A stretch of DNA of 8,493 nucleotides from a virus (Duplodnaviria; Heunggongvirae; Uroviricota; Caudoviricetes), in IMG/VR virus record IMGVR_UViG_2703718808_000008, positions 1-8,493 of that record, one strand, 5' to 3'. Position 1 is the stretch's first letter; each line of letters starts with the position of its first letter. The notes below the pieces were generated by a model. It worked only from the letters and a program-made list of their open reading frames with translations, was not told the DNA's origin and ran no database searches. Made by a program: the position numbers and the translations under genes. This document shows positions 1 to 8,493 of this stretch, piece after piece.

Positions 1-354
1 TGCTGTTATATATAACTTATTTTGAATAACATATTGATTTAATTATATTTTCAATTAAGCCCGAAGTGCAAAAAAACTCAAAATAACTACACCAGTGACT
101 ACACCGTTCGGCGCACTGTATGAAACAACGTGGAACAAATAGGCACAAGAAATATAAAGGCGGGTAATTTTAAGGGGGCGTTGCTGTCGATATGGGGATT
201 CCCATATCGGGAACCCTACCGGAATTTTTTTCCGGTTAACAGTTAATCAGGCTGGTGGGCTTTACCTGTTCGGTAGGTGTTATGATTATCGTAATACCTT
301 TCCCTCAATGGGGTAAAAGCATCAACCGTAACGAAAGTCGTTATGGTTGCCGCC

Positions 355-467
355 GATACCCCAAATTTGGGTATCACGAGTAAGCCCCAAAATCTGGGTG
401 TTGCTCTTACTACCCAAACTACGGGTAGTTTCCGTAATTTCATGGTCGAGTTGCAGATCTGCAACTC
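355..467. other. Cluster of palindromic/hairpin motifs in non-coding DNA
   Basis: Three tandem units CCCAAA-N-GGGT at 355-375 (perfect 14-bp palindrome ACCCAAATTTGGGT), 385-400 and 411-427, then a perfect 20-bp palindrome GAGTTGCAGATCTGCAACTC at 448-467 with central GATC. Overlapping ORFs lack plausible RBS. Confidence 0.5.
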
Positions 468-505
468 CCCCATCAACCACAGGCGAATTTCCGCCTTCGG
501 TCATT

Positions 506-720
506 CCTTAATCATCTGCGTAATCATAATGATTATTCAGCCAGCGCAATTTTGCGCTTTGCTTTAAGTTCAACCAGTTACCGCCAGCTTCCCCCAATGG
601 GGGATTGTGGAATAATCAACGGTTTAGGCCTTAATCATCTGCGTAAACATAAGTAATCATAATGATCATTCAGCCAGCGCAATTTTGAGCTTTGCTTTAA
701 TCTCAGTGAGTTACCGCCGC
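506..720. repeat. Direct repeat, two copies of an ~85-95 bp unit (506-588 and 629-720)
   Basis: Both copies share CCTTAATCATCTGCGTA...ATCATAATGAT(T/C)ATTCAGCCAGCGCAATTTTG(C/A)GCTTTGCTTTAA...AGTTACCGCC; copy 2 has a ~10-bp insertion and includes the stop codon of the 711-992 ORF. Confidence 0.8.
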
Positions 721-992
721 AACCGTTCCGGCTTCTTCCAGTGGTACGTGATTTTCTCCTTCTCCCGATACATCTCCACGCGGCGACGGTATGCCAGCAA
801 CTCAAGGACTCTGGTTCGTATGTTGCGCATATCCACGCCGTTAAGCTCAATACCATCACGGCGCATCACCTCAGCAACAACACGCGCATAATTTTCAGCG
901 GTCACGCTGTCCGGTTGCGTGCCCTGTTCGTCATGCTGCTGGCTGATTCCGGTAACGCGGCGGATTAATCGCAGTAGTTCGGCTTCTGTCAT
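711..992 (-). CDS. Hypothetical protein, 93 aa
   Basis: ORF with G-rich SD (GATGGGGG) just upstream of ATG at 992; lies between cos and the direct repeats. No family recognised. Confidence 0.5.
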   Translation of the reverse strand: MTEAELLRLIRRVTGISQQHDEQGTQPDSVTAENYARVVAEVMRRDGIELNGVDMRNIRTRVLELLAYRRRVEMYREKEKITYHWKKPERLRR

Positions 993-1046
993 TGTGCCCC
1001 CATCGTTCTGATAGCCTGGTGTCGTCGGGTCCTTCCTGGAATTATG

Positions 1047-1140
1047 GCCCGTTACGGGGCGGCGACCTCGCGGTTTTTATCTGTTTATGAAAATTTTCCG
1101 GCAAAAGTCAGATCCGTTCTTCTTCTCTGTAACAGACTGT
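1047..1140 (+). other. Lambda-type cos site (cosN with 12-nt cohesive-end sequence at 1057-1068, plus cosB-like segment)
   Basis: 1051-1073 reads GTTACG GGGCGGCGACCT CGCGG, matching the recalled lambda right-end/left-end junction; downstream TTTATGAAAATTTTCCGG and CCGTTCTTCTTC match recalled lambda cosB-proximal sequence. Confidence 0.75.
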
Positions 1141-1218
1141 TTAACAATGAAAATATTAAAAAAAGAAAGGATCTGACACGAGGCATTTTAGCCAGAAAAT
1201 GCCATTATCAGATCCTTT
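1140..1218 (-). terminator. Intrinsic terminator downstream of TerS-like gene (nested hairpin, possibly bidirectional)
   Basis: Outer inverted repeat AAAGGATCTGA (1166-1176) / TCAGATCCTTT (1208-1218) enclosing inner GGCATTTT (1182-1189) / AAAATGCC (1196-1203); on the minus strand followed by CTTTTTTTAATATTTT. Confidence 0.6.
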
Positions 1219-1247
1219 CTCATTTTTGTTCAATAATTGCGCTTCTG

Positions 1248-1790
1248 TTACTTGCCTTTCTTCTGTAGCAACTTTTCCGGTACGTTTCCGGTTGTTTCTT
1301 TCAAGTAATCAGCCAGTATCTGTGGGAGGTTGTCGGCAACTCTGGCACTGGCATTACAGGCTTTAACCACTTCCCTTTTAAGCCTGTCCAGCATGGCGGG
1401 GGTAATCTGTGGGAAGCTCCTTTGCATAGTAAGCGGGAGGCTGTCCATGATTGATGAAATCTGACTCGCCAGCTTTGAAAGCGCGTACAGGCAAAACTCA
1501 GTATCAATCACGTCACCGCGATCGCGCTCGTTTTTAAGTTCCTGCGCCTCCGCCTGTGCTGTCAGTAATCTGATCCTGACTCGTAAGAGTTCATCATCAT
1601 CAATATCGCCTTTGTCGTTTGTAAGCTGGCTAATTGCATTGTTAACCCTATTGTCTATCACGCTGGCAACATCATAAAACGCCTCACGGCCTTTACGTTC
1701 AACGGGAGTCACTCCCCACTTGTCGAACGCTGTCGCACTTACACGGCAGCTTTTCGCCATGTTTTTTTTGTTCATCAGGTGCGATTTCAT
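1248..1790 (-). CDS. Terminase small subunit homologue, lambda Nu1-like (possibly a satellite packaging-redirection protein)
   Basis: 180-aa ORF collinear with recalled lambda Nu1: N-terminal DNA-binding region (MNKKN..., G-KG-E--YD-A-VI) and central block LTAQAEAQELKNERD...TEFCLYALSKLA...I-S-LPL--QR-FP. Start uncertain (1790 or 1775), no strong SD. Confidence 0.85.
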   Translation of the reverse strand: MKSHLMNKKNMAKSCRVSATAFDKWGVTPVERKGREAFYDVASVIDNRVNNAISQLTNDKGDIDDDELLRVRIRLLTAQAEAQELKNERDRGDVIDTEFCLYALSKLASQISSIMDSLPLTMQRSFPQITPAMLDRLKREVVKACNASARVADNLPQILADYLKETTGNVPEKLLQKKGK

Positions 1791-1913
1791 TAATACACCA
1801 ACTTAATTACTGCTTCAGGTTGGTGTATTGTTTGCATCTTTCCCTTTTCATTCATAAAGATAGAGCAAACAACAAAACCACCACCACCCCCCTGAAAAGG
1901 CTCATAAATAGCG

Positions 1914-1968
1914 AAAACGCGCGAGGTCGTCGCCCCGTAACGGGTCCATATGCCGGAAAGGACCCGTA
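1914..1968 (-). other. Second, degenerate cos-like sequence in inverted orientation upstream of the TerS-like gene
   Basis: Reverse complement reads GGGTCCTTTCCGGCATATGGACCCGTTACGGGGCGACGACCTCGCGCGTTTTCGCTATTTATGA, about 85 percent identical to 1024-1078 and matching recalled lambda GTTTTCGCTATTTATGA; two substitutions in the cohesive-end/cosN core. Confidence 0.55.
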
Positions 1969-1991
1969 AAAAAAGCCGGATTTCTCCGGCC
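1968..1991 (-). terminator. Intrinsic terminator after the capsid operon
   Basis: Minus strand reads GCCGGA-GAAA-TCCGGC followed by TTTTTTT, immediately after the stop of the 1996-2409 ORF. Confidence 0.7.
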
Positions 1992-1995
1992 TGTC

Positions 1996-2409
1996 TCAGA
2001 TGGTTTTCAGTATGCGATCGATGTCGCCGTCATCGCCCGGGTTTCTGCCATCGTATGCCATGCCAGCTGATACGGCTTGCGGGCTGTGCATGTCCATAAA
2101 GTTTTCAAAGGCTGCGGTAAGCTCCGGCGCAACCTTCGGACGTTCCTGCTCTATGGTCATGCTAAGGATGCTTTTAGCCGTACCAACATCGATACAAGGC
2201 ACGTTTGCCATTGCACGTAACAGCGGCTGATAGTCGCCAGATTCATCAAGCGCCATAATCGCATCAGCGCGCGGCTTGTCCTGCTCTTCCAGTTTGTTAA
2301 GTTGATATATGGCCTCGTAGGTTGATAACCCTCTGTCAGCCATTGCCCGCGCTTCGGCTTTAAATTTACTCGCCAGCGGTAGCGTCATGATGCTTTCATT
2401 CGTTGCCAT
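1996..2409 (-). CDS. Hypothetical protein, 137 aa, last gene of the capsid operon
   Basis: SD AGGGGGAA upstream of ATG at 2409; starts 13 bp after the decoration gene stop and is followed by a terminator. No family recognised. Confidence 0.7.
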   Translation of the reverse strand: MATNESIMTLPLASKFKAEARAMADRGLSTYEAIYQLNKLEEQDKPRADAIMALDESGDYQPLLRAMANVPCIDVGTAKSILSMTIEQERPKVAPELTAAFENFMDMHSPQAVSAGMAYDGRNPGDDGDIDRILKTI

Positions 2410-2421
2410 CGTTCCCCCTGC

Positions 2422-2757
2422 TTATCGGGCCAGCGGCTGAACGGATACGCCAGACCCCGCAAAGGCAGCGCATTTTTTCGCGTCAGTGTCGGCGCTCTCA
2501 GGCCAGTTTACGGCAGCGATATTAAATATCCCCGTCTTGTAACACTGTGCTGATTTCTGCGTCGACGTGTCCACGGGGTACGAAGTCAGATAAACAGCCT
2601 TGCCAGATTCCTGACCATCCCACGGCTTAAACTCGCCATTGTCCGCCAGCATCAGCGGGGTAAATTCCTGAATAACGCCAGCATCAGCGGCAAAATGTAC
2701 CAGCGTCGTGGCGACCTGCTGACTGCCTGCGAATAACTCAATGTATGGAGTGTCCAT
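2422..2757 (-). CDS. Head decoration protein, lambda gpD-like
   Basis: 111-aa ORF sharing blocks with recalled lambda gpD (TPLML, WDG, YK-G-F, WPE, KK-AFAG); SD GGGGGA; 11-bp gap after the capsid gene stop. Confidence 0.85.
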   Translation of the reverse strand: MDTPYIELFAGSQQVATTLVHFAADAGVIQEFTPLMLADNGEFKPWDGQESGKAVYLTSYPVDTSTQKSAQCYKTGIFNIAAVNWPESADTDAKKCAAFAGSGVSVQPLAR

Positions 2758-2768
2758 AGAATCCCCCG

Positions 2769-3824
2769 TTAACCAATTTTGACGGTAACAAATTTGCGAA
2801 TATCTGCCGGTACCGGCTGCGGTGCGCTGTGTGTCTGCACGTACTCAATCGCCGGATCGCCGTCCTCAATCCAGTTTTTCGGGTAGTACATGTTTTGCGT
2901 TGCGCCCGTTCTGACCGCTTCCTGATCCATAATCGCACCATAGGCCACCAGGCCTTTATTGTTGGTGTTACCCAGGACCAGTAAATCAGGCTCAAGGAAA
3001 TATTTTTCGGTGCCGTCGCTGTCAGCGTATTTGCCGGAATAGACGATAAGGGCAATATCGCCCAGATAGCCTTTAAAGCTCACCACTTCGCCCAGGTTTT
3101 TACAGGCCAGTTCTGCGGCGGATTCTGAACCACGGGAAAGATCGTACAGCTCACGGAATTTTTTAAAGCTGCGTAACGTGCGCCATACCTCAGCGCCCAT
3201 AATCATGACGTTTGCGGGGCAACCAGCCTGATCTGCATAAAGCTCGATGTCATAGATTGGGTCGTGCATCTCTTTATCCTGCTCGGACCATTTTTTACCC
3301 TTGGCCTGCTCTATGATGCAGTTTTCCGGTATTTTCCAGTCTATTTCATAGCGTTCTATGCCTTCGCCCTCAATAATGTTTTTTCCGGTCGTTATCGCAT
3401 TCACCGCCAGCCATTCCACGCGCGCTTTAATGGCGTTTACCTGGCGGCGCATGTTGCCAGTAATCAGGCGCATACGTCGGTAGGTAGGGTCGTTAAGCTG
3501 TGCCGGATCTTCTCCAGCCATGCGCATGATGGTTTTTGTTGGATCGATTTCGTGCTTTGGCTTCATGTAGCCAGGTTTAATCGTGCTGGTTTCGTATCCT
3601 TTATCGCGCTGTACCTGGCTGCCAACCATAGGCGAACAAAACGCCGACATGGTGACTTCTTCAATGTCCAGGGTATCCAGCATGATGTTTTGGGTGCTGA
3701 ATGTCGCCACGTTCGGGAAAAACAGCGTGGTAAACAGCGGACTGAATTTAAATTCCGCAATATCCCCGCGATTCAGGTACGCAAAAAGCTGGTTAGTGTT
3801 AAGTGCCGTTGCTTTGCCTGCCAT
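2769..3824 (-). CDS. Major capsid protein, lambda gpE-like
   Basis: 351-aa ORF sharing many collinear blocks with recalled lambda gpE (FKF-PLF-LFF, PGY-KPKHE, DP-YRR-R-I-NMR, RSFK, RGS-S, VS-KG-GD-A-VYSG-Y, VLGNT, YPKNW, GDPA); SD GGGGG; start overlaps upstream stop (TAATG). Confidence 0.92.
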   Translation of the reverse strand: MAGKATALNTNQLFAYLNRGDIAEFKFSPLFTTLFFPNVATFSTQNIMLDTLDIEEVTMSAFCSPMVGSQVQRDKGYETSTIKPGYMKPKHEIDPTKTIMRMAGEDPAQLNDPTYRRMRLITGNMRRQVNAIKARVEWLAVNAITTGKNIIEGEGIERYEIDWKIPENCIIEQAKGKKWSEQDKEMHDPIYDIELYADQAGCPANVMIMGAEVWRTLRSFKKFRELYDLSRGSESAAELACKNLGEVVSFKGYLGDIALIVYSGKYADSDGTEKYFLEPDLLVLGNTNNKGLVAYGAIMDQEAVRTGATQNMYYPKNWIEDGDPAIEYVQTHSAPQPVPADIRKFVTVKIG

Positions 3825-4030
3825 TATTCACCCCCATAATTTTTATGCATCCCAAGCGCCGCAAGTAAATAAGAGCGCACAAGTGAACCTATCGACGGCT
3901 CCGGCGTCATCAGCGGATCCAGTCCAGCCGCTACGCCAGCCTCATAGTTTTTTTTGTGGCGCTGCTTGAGCACCTCCACGATTTCGGGGCTTATGTACAC
4001 GGTCACCCCGCCTTTTTTCTCTTCTGCCAT
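3824..4030 (-). CDS. Hypothetical 68-aa protein, first gene of the capsid operon
   Basis: ATG at 4028-4030 (MAEEKK...) preceded by SD AGAGGAA; the track's earlier start at 4063 lies inside the operator palindrome. Stop coupled to the capsid gene start. No family recognised. Confidence 0.6.
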   Translation of the reverse strand: MAEEKKGGVTVYISPEIVEVLKQRHKKNYEAGVAAGLDPLMTPEPSIGSLVRSYLLAALGMHKNYGGE

Positions 4031-4060
4031 AGTCAGAAATTCCTCTTTGACTAAAAAAAT

Positions 4061-4114
4061 CATAACTGGATGTTCATCCAGTTATGATTATAATCATGAT
4101 TGCATTTTGTGCAA
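4061..4114 (-). promoter_or_regulatory. Putative sigma70-type promoter of the capsid operon with overlapping operator palindrome
   Basis: Minus-strand -35 TTGCAC (plus coords 4109-4114), 16-nt spacer, -10 TATAAT (4087-4092); perfect 12-2-12 inverted repeat CATAACTGGATG-TT-CATCCAGTTATG at 4061-4086 around the predicted start, and 14-bp palindrome ATGATTATAATCAT at 4085-4098. Confidence 0.4.
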
Positions 4115-4192
4115 TGATGTTGAGTTGTGTTGCAAATTATGAAATTATTATCCCGATCATGTGTGTCAGTGCACCAAAAAAACCTCATATGC

Positions 4193-4234
4193 AAAAGCCC
4201 GATAAGTTTCCTCTGACCTTATCGGGCTTTTTTA
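4193..4234 (+). terminator. Intrinsic terminator, likely bidirectional
   Basis: GCCCGATAAG (4197-4206) / CTTATCGGGC (4218-4227) stem flanked by AAAA upstream and TTTTTT downstream. Confidence 0.6.
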
Positions 4235-4408
4235 TCTGCCTGCAAAGATGTCGAACAAAAATTAACCACAACCATCATCTTTTTTGCATCAAAACAATTA
4301 AAAACAATAAATTACGCTCATGATGATGATGACGATAAAATCACAAAAATGCGCTTTTTTCCGCGCCGACCCGCCTCGTGGACAGGCCCCCCCGCCAGGA
4401 GTACCTAC

Positions 4409-4431
4409 AAAAAAGCCGGATTTTCTCCGGC
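4409..4431 (-). terminator. Intrinsic terminator after the SSB-like gene
   Basis: Minus strand reads GCCGGA-GAAAA-TCCGGC then TTTTTT, 8 bp after the SSB-like stop; near-identical to the terminator at 1968-1991. Confidence 0.7.
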
Positions 4432-4439
4432 CATGATGT

Positions 4440-4850
4440 TCAGAAAGGAATATTGTCACCGTAGGGGTCATCGCCTCCAGCTGGTGGCTGATTACCCTGT
4501 GTGCCTGTGGTTTTGCGTCTGTTCCCGCCAGGACGTGCCGCACGGGCACTGATTACGCTGTCTGCAATAACCTGATAACCCTGCCGCGTTTCCCCGTTCT
4601 GTCCGGTCCACTGGCTTATCTGCATCACGCCAGATATGCTGGCAACGTCGCCTTTTTGATGTTTAGCCAGGAAGTCGGCCTGCTTACCAAATGCCATCAC
4701 CGATAGCCATAACGTAGCCGTTCCGTCATCTGCCTGGCTGCACGGAAGGGGGACCGCCATACGCGCCAGCGTCATCGGTGTGCCCTTGCTGGTCTGTTTT
4801 ACCTGCGGGTCGTCCACCAGCCGCCCGTAAGCGGCTATCTGTGCTGTCAT
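4440..4850 (-). CDS. ssb: Single-stranded DNA-binding protein homologue
   Basis: 136-aa ORF with OB-fold-like blocks resembling recalled E. coli SSB (GRL-DDP-V, W--V--FGK, W-G), Gly/Pro-rich linker and C-terminal ...DNIPF resembling the SSB tip DDDIPF; SD GGAGAGGTGG; start overlaps upstream stop (ATGA). Confidence 0.75.
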   Translation of the reverse strand: MTAQIAAYGRLVDDPQVKQTSKGTPMTLARMAVPLPCSQADDGTATLWLSVMAFGKQADFLAKHQKGDVASISGVMQISQWTGQNGETRQGYQVIADSVISARAARPGGNRRKTTGTQGNQPPAGGDDPYGDNIPF

Positions 4851-5161
4851 GATTCCACCTCTCCGGTTTTAACGTTGATGGTTGTTACCTGTTCCGCTTC
4901 GGCAATCTCCCGTTCTGTCAGCGTGGCAAAGTTTGCCGCCGCTGTGGTCATGAATGCGCTTATCAGTTCGGGATGTTCCTTCGCGTATCCTTCCCGCGTG
5001 TGGCGGTCTATCGTTCTGATTGCCACCTTTAAGGTGTGCTCAGTCATGTCTAACGCTTTATATTTTGGCTCTGTTCTGTCTCTGCGAATTTTGGTCATTT
5101 GTCGCCCCTGATTCATGTTTTCGGCTGGCATGTTTGTTAAGTGATTTTGATGTATGCGCAT
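4847..5161 (-). CDS. Hypothetical protein, 104 aa
   Basis: Strong SD GAGGGGGTGA upstream of ATG at 5161; coupled to the SSB-like gene; directly downstream of the iteron region. No family recognised. Confidence 0.6.
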   Translation of the reverse strand: MRIHQNHLTNMPAENMNQGRQMTKIRRDRTEPKYKALDMTEHTLKVAIRTIDRHTREGYAKEHPELISAFMTTAAANFATLTEREIAEAEQVTTINVKTGEVES

Positions 5162-5208
5162 TTATTTTCACCCCCTCGTTTAAAAAGTTTTTAGTTGTGC
5201 CTCCCCCC

Positions 5209-5431
5209 CTCTACCCATCTACCCGAATGCTCATCATGTCAGTAATGGCGCGGCTTTCAGCGGGTAGATAGCTTTTTGGGCTCCTCTACCTGCCGTCTAC
5301 CCTGCTACCTGAAACTGATAAAATCAGGTAGAAGAGGTAGAGAGCTTTTATTAGCCTTCCACCTGGCCCTCTACCCACTTATCATGTTGAATAATATACG
5401 TTTATTTCATTCAGGTAGATGGGGTAGAGGG
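5209..5431. repeat. Iteron array, putative origin of replication
   Basis: At least 11 copies of (C)TCTACC(C/T) in both orientations (5209-5224, 5262-5269, 5283-5311, 5325-5344, 5366-5377, 5412-5430) with an AT-rich stretch at 5376-5411, directly downstream of the primase gene. Confidence 0.7.
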
Positions 5432-5444
5432 CTTTTACAAAAAA

Positions 5445-7193
5445 TTATAAAAACGCGTCGCAATCGTCTGTTGTAATTGCGTTGGTCTGCGTTACTCCCT
5501 TAACTTTTCGCGTAATATATTCATGCCCGTAAACTTTCGCCGCTGGCTTCATGGCCTTGCTGAACTCAGCCACGTTTAGCGGTTTGCTCCTGCCTGCGTA
5601 TGCCATAAACGCCAGATAGACGCGGTAAAGGCTGTTCCTGGTCGTGTACTTCACTGAATCACCACCGCCACCCATCATCAGGCCGCGCGCTTCCTCCAGA
5701 AAATTCAGGAACTGGCAAAACTCAATAACCGGATCCGTCTGTTGCTTTATCGCCAGTGCTTCATCTCCGTCACGCTGTTCCAGTAGTAAAGCCCGTGCCT
5801 TCTCAGGGTCGGTAAAGTTCGCCAGCAAGCGGCGGATAATAACGGGGATTTCAGCCGCGATCTTTTCCGGTAGTTCCCTGTCTTTTTCGGCCTCACTGAC
5901 GATATTGTCGAAACGGAAAATCACGCGACGACGTGCCACACCTCCGGCCCGTTCGGTGAATATCATCGGGTTATTGTTGGTCGCCAGCACCACCGCCCTG
6001 ATTACCGCCGTGAAACGCTTTTCATATTTCGGGTTTATTTCCACGGGGTCGCCGCCCGTGATTTTCTTGATGCCCGTTCCTTCGCCTGTATATTTCGGCT
6101 GGTCTGCCAGGACGATAAGACGACTCCCGACAACCTGCGCACGTCCACCAGCATCATCAAGCGATGTCATTTCAGCGCTTACCGTGTTCTGTTTCCCTGC
6201 CAGAAGGCTGGCTATGTGCGTGAATGTACTTTTACCGCTCCCGCCATCTCCTGTGGCCTCAATAAACATCTGCCAGTCGTACCGGTTCGCCATAATCATG
6301 TACAGCGCGGCACATATACGCATCATCTTGTGCGGGTCTTTTCCGGCTGCGTGCTCAAGCCATTTATGAAAGTTTGGCGCGTTGTCGCAAATGTTCTCCC
6401 CTGGTGCTGGTGGCGTGTACTCAATGCCGTTGTGCGTGGTGATCCAGTTCTCCGGCGTGTGCGGGGAAAATTCCCCCGTTTTCAGGTCAAGTGCACCATT
6501 GGCGAACGGCAACAAATCGCCGGACGGCTCGCCCATTGGTTCGGCAATAACTTTTAACGCTTCCACGGCGTTATTGATTACGCGTTTGCTGAAAGTGGCC
6601 CTGTGCTCTGAATAGATCGCCACCATTTCGCGGCTCAGCTCCATTGTGCTGACCGGACACCATACCCCGCCGCGCCATACGTGAACGATTTCACTTTCCG
6701 GATGCACACAAACGCCATCAAAGCGCTCGGCAAGCAGCTGCGCGCGCTCACTGTCTGCCATTTGTGCCAGTTGCGTATTTTTCTGCTCCGGCATGGTAAG
6801 CCCTGCGGCAATATTTTCACGCTCAGCATTCAGATAGCGCCGCCAGTTTTCACACTTCTGGACGTGCATTCCTTCGTGGTAAAAATTTGCGTCCTGAATA
6901 TCTGCCGCCGCCAGCTTCTGACCAATCTTTTTGGTCTCCACTAAATCCAGTTCTCCGGCCTGGTACAGCCTTACGCGCTTTTTCCCATCCGGAACAATTT
7001 TCAGCGCATCAAGTTCGGCAAGCTGATTTGGCCCAAGCCACACAGGCGGCACATTATCGCCGGATGCGGGGCCATCCTGCTCCTGCCATTGTTTCGCGTG
7101 CGACCAGGCATCACTACCCGCAAAGATAATTACCTCTGTGTCTTTGTGTTTTATTCCGCGTGGCTGTTTTTTTACGTTCGGTGCCAGTTTCAT
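5445..7193 (-). CDS. Primase/helicase, P4 alpha (D5-like) family
   Basis: 582-aa ORF with Walker A GDGGSGKST and the size and layout of P4-family primase-helicase proteins; SD AGGGGT; start overlaps upstream ORF stop (ATGA). Confidence 0.9.
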   Translation of the reverse strand: MKLAPNVKKQPRGIKHKDTEVIIFAGSDAWSHAKQWQEQDGPASGDNVPPVWLGPNQLAELDALKIVPDGKKRVRLYQAGELDLVETKKIGQKLAAADIQDANFYHEGMHVQKCENWRRYLNAERENIAAGLTMPEQKNTQLAQMADSERAQLLAERFDGVCVHPESEIVHVWRGGVWCPVSTMELSREMVAIYSEHRATFSKRVINNAVEALKVIAEPMGEPSGDLLPFANGALDLKTGEFSPHTPENWITTHNGIEYTPPAPGENICDNAPNFHKWLEHAAGKDPHKMMRICAALYMIMANRYDWQMFIEATGDGGSGKSTFTHIASLLAGKQNTVSAEMTSLDDAGGRAQVVGSRLIVLADQPKYTGEGTGIKKITGGDPVEINPKYEKRFTAVIRAVVLATNNNPMIFTERAGGVARRRVIFRFDNIVSEAEKDRELPEKIAAEIPVIIRRLLANFTDPEKARALLLEQRDGDEALAIKQQTDPVIEFCQFLNFLEEARGLMMGGGGDSVKYTTRNSLYRVYLAFMAYAGRSKPLNVAEFSKAMKPAAKVYGHEYITRKVKGVTQTNAITTDDCDAFL

Positions 7194-7489
7194 TTTTTAC
7201 CCCTGAATACGTTAAGCATCTTTTTTATTTCCTGAATATTGGCGCGTGCTTTCTCCCTGCTGGTGGGCACGTTACGCGGTACGGCCTGCACAAGAGAAAA
7301 ATCACGGTCGAACTGATAAACAGGCATCACGCAATCATATTCGTAGCCTTCACGACGGTAAGTTACGCGCCGTTCCTCCACGCCCTTAATCATTACCGTG
7401 CCGCCGTACTGGTCGCGGTAAATATCACCGCGCATGAATTTAGTGCGAGTTTTGCCACTGGCAGTTAAGCCAGAATATTTAAGTTTCAT
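7190..7489 (-). CDS. Hypothetical protein, 99 aa, coupled to primase
   Basis: SD GGAGAA upstream of ATG at 7489; stop overlaps the primase start. No family recognised. Confidence 0.65.
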   Translation of the reverse strand: MKLKYSGLTASGKTRTKFMRGDIYRDQYGGTVMIKGVEERRVTYRREGYEYDCVMPVYQFDRDFSLVQAVPRNVPTSREKARANIQEIKKMLNVFRGKK

Positions 7490-7494
7490 TATTT

Positions 7495-7725
7495 TTATTC
7501 TCCGGTGTGGGGCGCGTTATTATTTTCGTGAATTGCCATTGCCTTATCCAGTTCATCAATAACAGGCGATAGTAATGTCTGAACGGCGGCAAGCATTAAT
7601 GACGAAGATTCTTCTCCAGCTTCCGTTGCTTCAATTAATTTAATTAACAACACATTCATTTCGCGTGCTTTAATTAATGCGTTTTCAGAGTGGATTAATA
7701 CTTCAAAAGGGATTTTATGCATCAC
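7495..7725 (-). CDS. Hypothetical small protein, about 75 aa
   Basis: GTG at 7725 (SD AAGGGAG, 7-nt spacing) or ATG at 7722; 5-bp gap to the downstream ORF. Predicted helical, no family recognised. Confidence 0.55.
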   Translation of the reverse strand: MMHKIPFEVLIHSENALIKAREMNVLLIKLIEATEAGEESSSLMLAAVQTLLSPVIDELDKAMAIHENNNAPHTGE

Positions 7726-7945
7726 AAATTTTCTCCCTTATTCTTTTAATGTCCTCATTAAGGATGTCTGTAACTTTTATCAGCGAGTTTTTGGCAATTA
7801 TTTTTATTGTTTTAAGTTTTCTTTTGTCGTGCTCCGACTGTGATTTTCTCTCCATGCTCTCCACCATGTGGGTAACATCAACGAGCGCACGTATCAGTAT
7901 TTGCATTGCTTCTTCTGCTGCGTCCGGTGTGGTTTTATTGTGCAT
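7715..7945 (-). CDS. Hypothetical small protein, 76 aa, first gene of the replication operon
   Basis: ATG at 7943-7945 preceded by SD AGGGGGA (the track's 7987 start is a GTG without SD); overlaps the next ORF by 11 nt. Confidence 0.5.
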   Translation of the reverse strand: MHNKTTPDAAEEAMQILIRALVDVTHMVESMERKSQSEHDKRKLKTIKIIAKNSLIKVTDILNEDIKRIREKICDA

Positions 7946-8057
7946 AGGTTTCCCCCTGGCGAATACGGGCGGCAAATACAGCAACACAACCGGACGGGCA
8001 ACGGCTACGCGCTTCGCGTTCCGTCCAGGCGGTTACGTGGATGATTTGAGATTCTCC

Positions 8058-8101
8058 GGCACTCAGTGCCAGAAAACGCCACACAAAGGCCGTTTGTGTG
8101 T
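8058..8101. promoter_or_regulatory. Two adjacent palindromes in the divergent control region (candidate operators)
   Basis: GGCACT-C-AGTGCC at 8058-8070 and CACACAAA-GGCCG-TTTGTGTG at 8081-8101, upstream of the minus-strand replication operon. Confidence 0.3.
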
Positions 8102-8209
8102 GTGCTAGTCGTGGGGTATGATTTACGGCAACCATAAATTTACCTCTCTATAGTGTTTGTGGTTAGACGCCCTGCATGTGTTCCAGCACTGTGGGGCGTT
8201 GTTTTTTTG

Positions 8210-8279
8210 GTGCAAGTCACCTTGAAATCTAGGTTACTTTTAGGTGACTTGCACTTCAAGTCTTTTTTTATTTTTTTTT
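8210..8279 (+). other. Long inverted repeat followed by a T-run (operator or plus-strand terminator)
   Basis: Perfect 13-bp arms GTGCAAGTCACCT (8210-8222) / AGGTGACTTGCAC (8242-8254), interleaved second pair CTTGAA/TTCAAG, then T-rich tract 8263-8279; about 40 bp upstream of the plus-strand gene start. Confidence 0.4.
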
Positions 8280-8320
8280 CTCCGTATACTGAACACCACC
8301 TAACAGTAAGGAGAACAGAG

Positions 8321-8493
8321 ATGCCAACAGGTACAACCAACAACAAGTCACAACAAAAAACTGCTAGAGTACCTCTAGACGTTTTAAGCGAAATGAATTT
8401 GGTAAAAGAAGAAAACGAAACAGACGCACAATTTATCGTTACTGCCATGCGCGGCGAAATCAAACGCCGCCAGCGTCGCAAGGCCAAAGAATC
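8321..8493 (+). CDS. Partial CDS (5' end only) of unknown function, divergent from the replication operon
   Basis: ATG at 8321 preceded by SD AAGGAG at 7-nt spacing; frame open to the window end (MPTGTTNNKSQQKTARVPLDVLSEMNLVKEENETDAQFIVTAMRGEIKRRQRRKAKE...); noticeably more A-rich than the minus-strand genes. Confidence 0.55.
   Translation, partial: MPTGTTNNKSQQKTARVPLDVLSEMNLVKEENETDAQFIVTAMRGEIKRRQRRKAKE

Follow-up and report, generated by a model that had tools for sequence, protein, structure and literature searches.

The DNA analysed here is a stretch of 8,493 nucleotides from a virus of the Caudoviricetes (IMG/VR record IMGVR_UViG_2703718808_000008, positions 1 to 8,493; hereafter the window), in which positions 1,047 to 4,114 hold lambda-type shell genes and a small terminase gene. 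We conclude, with a probability of about 85%, that the window derives from a phage-inducible chromosomal island (PICI) of the classical Gram-negative kind, integrated in tqsA, whose module for packaging and 'capsid morphogenesis' lies in this region, and that the island is of the type that carries its own small terminase (TerS) and resembles the island of IHE3034. It is an element of an already known kind, the classical Gram-negative PICI layout having been laid out in previous studies (PMC6092414, PMC6739421, PMC10085698, PMC10111431), and by itself it adds little, as it represents another copy of a satellite family described in 2018-2019 and present in approximately one tenth of complete E. 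coli genomes, O157:H7 strains included. The puzzle that it poses for the field concerns its shell genes: a capsid, decoration and scaffold-like trio is kept intact under strong purifying selection, and yet deletion of the capsid or the decoration gene is without laboratory phenotype.

The assignment is carried by comparison with complete islands. The window shares 98% DNA identity over 94% of its length with the JNE181771 island, an element of ~11 kb that splits tqsA and has chromosomal genes on both sides, and ~92% DNA identity with the published IHE3034 island, likewise ~11 kb long and located between clpS and cspD. Integrase and AlpA genes form the end of both complete islands and lie outside the window, which stops at 8493. 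In the JNE181771 island the integrase has Arm-DNA-bind_3 and Phage_integrase domains (tyrosine integrase) and a 62-amino-acid (aa) protein matches Phage_AlpA (5e-18); AlpA was found in the IHE3034 island as well. Furthermore, an island in OkiPb01677 holding an exact copy of window 8100-8493 runs on from there into an AlpA-type gene, an integrase gene and tqsA.

The core of the PICI model in SatelliteFinder consists of integrase, regulator, primase-replicase, capsid morphogenesis and TerS (PMC10085698). In line with this model, we found a tyrosine integrase at one end together with an AlpA-family activator (both seen in the JNE181771 sister island), a primase-replicase (Pri-Rep) gene followed by a replication origin and, downstream of this replication module, a capsid-morphogenesis gene, TerS and cos, whereas tail, lysis, large terminase (TerL) and portal genes were not found, the length of ~11 kb falls within the 10-15 kb of the family, and the island occupies a site of its own that splits tqsA. 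Among 5426 complete E. coli genomes, the capsid-decoration pair occurred in 598 and the block formed by cos and terS in 759, in every case at a coverage of at least 80%. Moreover, the cassette was found at several attachment sites (tqsA; beside clpS and cspD; beside phoQ), accompanied every time by integrase, AlpA and Pri-Rep and without pseudogenes. A pattern search for related loci with the capsid protein across genome contigs gave 34 pattern matches, of which 0 were confirmed. With regard to function, helper-dependent induction, packaging, high-frequency transfer and helper interference have been experimentally shown for the sister island EcCICFT073 only (PMC6092414). For the IHE3034 island, which is stated to encode TerS, a cat marker was placed beside the 93-aa gene (Fillol-Salom et al. 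2018, PMC6092414).

The module is composed of the following elements, among which the 68-aa, gpE-like, gpD-like, 137-aa and Nu1-like genes lie on the minus strand where the original prediction had placed them, as borne out by the list of open reading frames (ORFs), Pfam and PHROG:

4087-4114, minus strand: candidate sigma-70 promoter of the capsid cassette, TTGCAC (4114-4109), 16-nt spacer, TATAAT (4092-4087)
4058-4089, minus strand: perfect 15-bp inverted repeat AATCATAACTGGATG / CATCCAGTTATGATT, overlapping the -10 element and the likely transcript start, then a run of 7 T
3824-4030, minus strand: 68-aa protein, first cassette gene (phrog_3255)
2769-3824, minus strand: major capsid protein of the lambda gpE family, 351 aa (Pfam PF03864 Phage_cap_E, 4.6e-51; phrog_29, 2.8e-108)
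2422-2757, minus strand: head decoration protein of the lambda gpD family, 111 aa (Pfam PF02924 HDPD, 1.8e-17)
1996-2409, minus strand: 137-aa Nu3-like protein (phrog_53, BLASTP)
1973-1992, minus strand: intrinsic-terminator-like hairpin and T run, directly after the stop codon of the 137-aa gene
1863-1965, minus strand: cosUp, co-oriented with terS (cosQ, cosN, cosB box)
1248-1790, minus strand: small terminase TerS of the Nu1 family, 180 aa (Pfam Phage_Nu1, 2.3e-23; phrog_57, 3.2e-53)
1027-1221, plus strand: cosDown, inverted relative to terS (cosQ, exact cosN, three R boxes)
711-992, minus strand: 93-aa conserved protein (phrog_1561), closing the module in all four islands compared

To define which head genes the island carries, we used six-frame tblastn with two query sets, namely lambda Nu1, A, W, B, C, Nu3, D, E, FI and FII, and all head and proximal tail genes of CFT073 prophage 4, which is phage-21-like, against the window and the two complete sister islands (JNE181771 and IHE3034). 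In these three targets, matches were confined to TerS, to the two shell proteins (capsid and decoration) and, for the protease, to its extreme C-terminus, and none was obtained for A/TerL, W, B/portal, the protease domain, the connector, FI, FII or tail genes; the annotation of the JNE181771 and IHE3034 islands shows no tail, lysis, TerL or portal genes either. The claimed absence of A, W, B, C and Nu3 thus holds for A, W, B and the protease domain and fails for Nu3, since the 137-aa protein is Nu3-like. The original prediction had named the presence of portal, protease and TerL elsewhere in the same element as the result that would speak against it; since these genes are missing from the complete sister islands, this test was negative. 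As the element has no portal, protease, TerL or tail genes, these must be borrowed from a lambdoid helper, which is in agreement with the proposal of a phage satellite relying on such a helper for precisely these functions.

The capsid protein has 42-46% identity with the gpE proteins of lambda, phage 21 and Gifsy-1, and its closest phage relatives are Gifsy-1, phage-21-like and lambda-like phages (44-46% identity). Over residues 32-105, the decoration protein shows 44% identity to its counterpart in CFT073 prophage 4; the N-terminal part of the island protein has diverged from phage gpD homologues. The identities of the capsid and decoration proteins to c1499 and c1500 of EcCICFT073 are 96% and 97%, respectively. 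No phage in the searched collection is more than 60% identical to the capsid protein or to TerS, which argues for an old lineage and against recent captures. Among close islands, the ratio of non-synonymous to synonymous substitution rates (dN/dS) is 0.09-0.16 for the capsid gene and 0.05-0.16 for the cassette, and against a divergent helper-embedded relative (dS ~0.8-1.0) it amounts to 0.088 for the capsid and 0.119 for the decoration gene. The cassette genes are therefore under strong purifying selection (dN/dS ~0.1), and since dN/dS is low both within close islands and at dS ~0.8-1.0, the cassette is functional.

A divergent family member was observed inside a prophage of E. coli CFIAFB20180511 (locus 1700-12000; capsid protein 85.5% identical). 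This helper-embedded PICI is flanked by lambda-type head genes (FI, head-tail joining) and P2-like contractile-tail genes, and it encodes an Rpp-like protein of 146 aa together with a shorter Nu3-like protein of 115 aa.

The third member of the trio, the 137-aa protein, matches with its residues 49-131 the S49 protease of CFT073 prophage 4 (protease residues 416-493 of 501; BLASTP, 37% identity, E 2e-10), as well as positions 494-567 of the 583 positions of phrog_53 (head maturation protease, E 1.3e-8) and, weakly, residues 126-199 of lambda Nu3, and it aligns with the C-termini of gpC and Nu3 to the last residue. Its layout comprises a unique N-terminal part of ~45 residues, one Nu3-type repeat and the Nu3/gpC C-terminal tail. 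Judged by these alignments, the protein is homologous to the gpC/Nu3 C-terminus, and a scaffold-like gene would accordingly be present in the cassette. Word-based and exhaustive HMMER searches define a very small family, found almost entirely in E. coli, to which the exhaustive search added as a distant relative one 195-aa repeat protein of the Nu3 type. The EcCICFT073 counterpart is 98.6% identical. The RefSeq label 'head-tail connector' given to the 137-aa protein was unsupported in our analysis.

TerS scores 83 bits against Pfam PF07471 (cut-off 30) and aligns end to end with lambda Nu1 (35% identity, covering Nu1 residues 3-180 of 181) and with N15 gp1 (46%). Together with its N-terminal winged helix-turn-helix, this marks it as a full-length member of the Nu1 family for which binding to DNA and TerL is predicted. 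Its N-terminal domain agrees with that of N15 gp1 at 30 of 52 residues (58%), compared to 13-15 of 52 for the TerS proteins of lambda, 21, PhiR5_1 and SerU-LTIIb, while its C-terminal half is nearest to PhiR5_1 and lambda-type TerS (36 of 66 residues for PhiR5_1). The last residue is the sole difference between the TerS proteins of the window and of the IHE3034 island (99.4% identical). Directly upstream of the terS start, over the expected ribosome-binding region, we observed a 10-bp inverted repeat (ATACACCAAC / GTTGGTGTAT; window 1793-1827, minus strand), which may control terS translation.

A single cos site had been proposed, and an exact lambda cosN is indeed present at 1057-1068; however, there are two sites, not one, the second being located at ~1965-1863. 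Both flank terS in inverted orientation, and the same arrangement is found in the JNE181771, IHE3034 and CFT073 islands. On the minus strand, cosUp is composed of cosQ GGGTCCTTTCCGG (1965-1953), cosN GGGCGACGACCT with one mismatch (1935-1924) and the cosB box GGTGGTGGTGGTTTTGTTGTTTGCTC (~1888-1863), so that the order cosQ, cosN, cosB, terS is that of phages. Window 1902-1973 is 94% identical to the cos region of phage PhiR5_1, and the cosB of cosUp shares TTGTTGTTT with the cosB of phage N15. On the plus strand, cosDown is composed of cosQ (1027-1039), the exact lambda cosN GGGCGGCGACCT (1057-1068) and three R boxes of the CAGATCC(G/T)TTCT type, R3 (1108-1125), R2 (1165-1178, inverted) and R1 (1208-1221), arranged as in lambda cosB and matching the cosB of phage SerU-LTIIb; here, window 1051-1106 is 89.5% identical to the phage 21 cos region.

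Comparison between islands separates the two sites. The window and the IHE3034 island have the same cosUp cosB box, whereas the boxes of cosDown are of the CAGATCC type in the window, phage-21-like (CATGTCG) in IHE3034 and of a third type in CFT073. Since cosUp is identical and TerS near-identical in the window and IHE3034 while cosDown differs, cosUp co-varies with the island specificity protein and cosDown varies independently. From its sequence, cosDown looks like a mimic of the helper phage site. In EcCICFT073, two functional cos sites have been published, and the cosB of cos1 is the site recognised by Rpp-TerS (PMC6739421). A private cos matched to the island's own TerS and a variable, helper-mimicking cos would predict which phages act as helpers.

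The two published islands delimit what is shared within the family. The IHE3034 island (EcCIIHE3034) has the same order as the window (DUF4222, Pri-Rep, single-stranded DNA-binding protein (SSB), 68-aa protein, capsid, decoration, 137-aa protein, cos, TerS, cos, 93-aa protein) and shares with it, besides TerS and the cosUp cosB box, a segment of ~170 bp also found in Stx phages (see below). It differs in its site, in the clpS/cspD region instead of tqsA, in the phage-21-like R boxes of its cosDown, and in a cosUp cosN that is free of the window's substitution. EcCICFT073 likewise has the order 68-aa protein, capsid, decoration, 137-aa protein, specificity gene and 93-aa protein, with the identities given above, the same promoter and palindrome, and two inverted cos sites around its packaging-specificity gene. 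In contrast to the window, this gene encodes Rpp (c1503, 144 aa) in place of a full-length Nu1-type TerS (180 aa), and the cosB beside it reads CACCACCACCAC, where the window has GGTGGTGGTGG...TTGTTGTTT.

These features suggest a model in which the packaging of the island is redirected by its own TerS. We infer from the EcCICFT073 literature that a lambdoid helper would induce AlpA, upon which the island would excise and replicate from its iteron origin. The island TerS would then bind the N15-like box of cosUp via its N15-like DNA-binding domain and recruit the helper TerL through its Nu1-type C-terminal half, and the helper TerL would cut the lambda-type cosN and package island concatemers into helper-derived heads fitted with helper tails. 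Direct redirection of the helper TerL by TerS is a strategy known for the TerS of Staphylococcus aureus pathogenicity islands (SaPIs), while Rpp, which has no tail for binding TerL, acts by pairing with the helper TerS in a heterodimer. cosDown might provide a second route, its phage-type cosB letting the helper's own terminase holoenzyme package the island. The capsid, decoration and Nu3-like proteins would form a conserved shell kit that is active only alongside helper portal and protease.

Several points weigh against this account. The IHE3034 island gave no more than 40 transductants from its native strain (PMC6092414). Residues 140-166 of the 180-aa TerS (27 aligned residues, with 14 more following) match known phage TerS proteins at just 7-11 positions (11 of 27 for PhiR5_1), and because these matches are so few, the TerL partner cannot be named. 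The cosN of cosUp (1924-1935) has a G-to-A change, whereas the JNE181771, IHE3034 and CFT073 islands all have the exact GGGCGGCGACCT, and this substitution may weaken the cos site of the present copy. In addition, no promoter was detected for terS in a consensus scan, and a terminator precedes cosUp and terS. Finally, deletion of c1499 (capsid) or c1500 (decoration) in EcCICFT073 left transfer and interference with lambda unchanged (PMC6092414).

The latter result bears most directly on the role of the shell genes. According to one explanation, which is also what the original prediction had in mind with altered capsids, the island capsid, decoration and Nu3-like scaffold proteins assemble shells of their own, possibly smaller ones, on the helper portal and with the helper protease. 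A complete trio kept under strong purifying selection would fit this explanation, as would the diverged N-terminus of the decoration protein, if it conferred specificity for the island capsid protein, and SaPIs offer precedents, in that their capsid size is redirected by the capsid homologue Ccm and by CpmB, for which a scaffolding role has been described. In EcCICFT073, however, with cassette proteins that are 96-99% identical to those of the window, the packaged DNA was without exception of phage size (PMC6092414) and the deletions cited above were without effect on transfer or interference, and capsid genes, present in 21 of 29 reference Gram-negative PICIs, are reported to be dispensable for transfer (PMC10111431). 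For this near-identical cassette the claim of an own shell is thus contradicted, and we consider it unlikely here. Equally doubtful is that the shell proteins act as divergent subunits that poison or divert helper procapsid assembly, redundantly with packaging redirection by TerS or Rpp. PICIs in general interfere with their helpers, the capsid homologue Ccm acts in this manner in SaPIbov5, and Rpp alone blocks lambda in EcCICFT073, which would mask a second mechanism; yet single deletions did not relieve lambda interference, and a decoration protein is not obviously needed for poisoning. Among these possibilities, we prefer the one in which the shell proteins would join helper procapsids or modulate them, and think it less likely that the island depends on them for a capsid of its own.

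That the region is merely the remnant of a decayed lambdoid prophage is largely refuted and appears highly improbable. It is true that its genes are lambda-family head genes and that, compared to lambda, their order is rearranged (E, D, Nu3-like, cos, Nu1); nevertheless, the cassette is intact in the 598 genomes and at the several attachment sites mentioned above, in the constant company of integrase, AlpA and Pri-Rep, with no pseudogenes and a dN/dS of ~0.1, and the sister island EcCICFT073 is experimentally mobile (PMC6092414). A more specific proposal is that TerS-type PICIs with natural lambdoid helpers use the trio for satellite-specific shells on a borrowed portal and protease. We regard this as rather improbable; if true, such shells could have a smaller triangulation (T) number and hold one or two 11-kb genomes, and they would represent an intermediate between classical PICIs and capsid-forming PICIs (cf-PICIs) that the experiments with lambda and phi80 on EcCICFT073 could have missed. 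The Nu3-like 137-aa protein and the pairing of a private with a mimic cos make the question of the shell genes more testable.

Returning to the classical PICI reading, comparison with curated satellite families places the island among classical PICIs and apart from cf-PICIs and P4-like satellites. With cf-PICIs (e.g. EcCIEDL933) it shares the backbone of integrase, AlpA, Pri-Rep and SSB. These elements, in contrast, have an HK97-type capsid protein, prohead protease, portal, connectors, HNH, P27-type TerS and TerL, and of these an own portal, prohead protease, adaptor/connector, HNH and TerL were not found here, the sole protease-related match being the non-catalytic C-terminal tail. In common with P4 are the P4/D5-family primase-helicase, an AlpA-type regulator, a tyrosine integrase, a length of ~11 kb and cos packaging by the helper terminase. 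Unlike P4, the island has a helper of the lambdoid type instead of P2 and its own TerS and lambda-type shell genes, and Sid, Psu, Delta and Epsilon were without Pfam or PHROG match or annotation (window ORFs scanned, some small ORFs excepted; JNE181771 and IHE3034 islands). The resemblance to SaPI CpmB, Ccm and TerS is a functional analogy only (TerS redirecting the helper TerL, a capsid homologue, a small scaffold-type protein), as the SaPI proteins are unrelated in sequence and belong to Gram-positive hosts with mostly headful (pac) packaging; small capsids are proven for SaPIs and not for the family of this island.

At the same tqsA site, the OkiPb01677 island (locus 1-13400) has the same backbone of integrase, AlpA-type, Icd, DUF4222, primase and SSB genes, with the stretch corresponding to window 8100-8493 being 100% identical. 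There, a complete head module of the cf-PICI kind (HK97 capsid protein, protease, portal, connectors, HNH, P27-type TerS and TerL) takes the position of the lambda-type cassette, which clearly points to an exchange of modules between PICI and cf-PICI.

Regarding expression of the cassette, the predicted sigma70-like promoter with its overlapping palindrome was recovered. Its -10 element is a perfect TATAAT, while its -35 element matches the consensus at 3 of 6 positions only, which is why it was missed, i.e. not called, in the consensus promoter scan. The block of promoter and palindrome is almost invariant in four islands of differing flanks, with a few changes in the palindrome arms, and the promoter reading is plausible on this basis. 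The palindrome at 4058-4089, which also scored as terminator-like in the terminator scan, could serve as an operator or as a terminator for read-through from upstream. At the other end of the cassette, the hairpin at 1992-1973 after the 137-aa gene is conserved in the IHE3034 and CFT073 islands. A single operon including TerS had been proposed, but owing to this terminator-like hairpin between the 137-aa gene and cos/terS, the inclusion of terS is unproven. Overall, the original observation is confirmed with three corrections (the Nu3-like nature of the 137-aa protein, the second, inverted cos site and the terminator), and its interpretation is partly supported, as satellite nature and borrowing are supported and the 'own shell' is not. 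A near-identical terminator hairpin, GGCCGGAGAAA(A)TCCGGC with T run, is used twice on the minus strand, at 4414-4432 after the SSB gene and at 1973-1992 after the 137-aa gene.

For the first cassette gene, an extended reading of 79 aa was rejected, as a stop codon lies inside it in IHE3034. The AlphaFold2 (AF2) model of the 68-aa protein has moderate confidence (predicted local distance difference test score, pLDDT, of 72.6) and contains strand-helix-helix elements; a Foldseek search with it against the PDB gave no significant match (nothing below E = 1.9), nor did PDB sequence searches with the 68-aa, 137-aa and TerS proteins give anything significant. A ribbon-helix-helix regulator would be only a guess. 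Homology to lambda gpW, which is also 68 aa long, was discarded, there being no similarity in the tblastn head-gene comparison.

Outside the module, the substantial ORFs of the window are likewise on the minus strand throughout. The P4-type primase and iteron origin of the original prediction are both present among the remaining features:

7935-8135, minus strand: Icd-like protein (sole NCBIfam match), with small hypothetical genes nearby
7190-7489, minus strand: DUF4222 protein
5445-7193, minus strand: primase-helicase of the P4/D5 family (island Pri-Rep), 582 aa (Pfam D5_N, DUF5906, Pox_D5; phrog_864, 1.1e-169)
5210-5428, both orientations: iteron replication origin just downstream of the primase gene, 10 copies of RGGTAGA
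4440-4850, minus strand: 104-aa protein and SSB, then a non-coding stretch before the capsid cassette

All 10 RGGTAGA copies of the window fall inside 5210-5428, compared to 0.91 expected by chance in the whole window. Scans of the whole window gave no Rfam family and, with ARAGORN, no tRNA.

Stx1- and Stx2-converting phages contain a stretch with 84-88% identity to a non-coding segment of ~170 bp in the window (4244-4413). In VT1-Sakai, this stretch is located between Rz and the small-terminase-like H0025, ~70 bp upstream of H0025 and co-oriented with the minus strand of the window. The segment is present in the IHE3034 island and missing from the JNE181771 and CFT073 islands; it had no Rfam match and no unusual fold (z = -1.27). 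A late-region or packaging signal taken over from Stx phages is one possible reading.

Window 1-16 lies within the 5' fragment of tqsA, so that the window includes the left chromosomal junction of the island (compare JNE181771 locus 8873-9016). No long exact attachment repeat was found, the ends of the JNE181771 island sharing just a 76-nt block of 75% identity. Near this junction, a tandem duplication of ~130 bp (window 506-585 and 629-718; JNE181771 locus coordinates 9506-9718), with copies that are 89-96% identical, spans the 3' end of the 93-aa gene.

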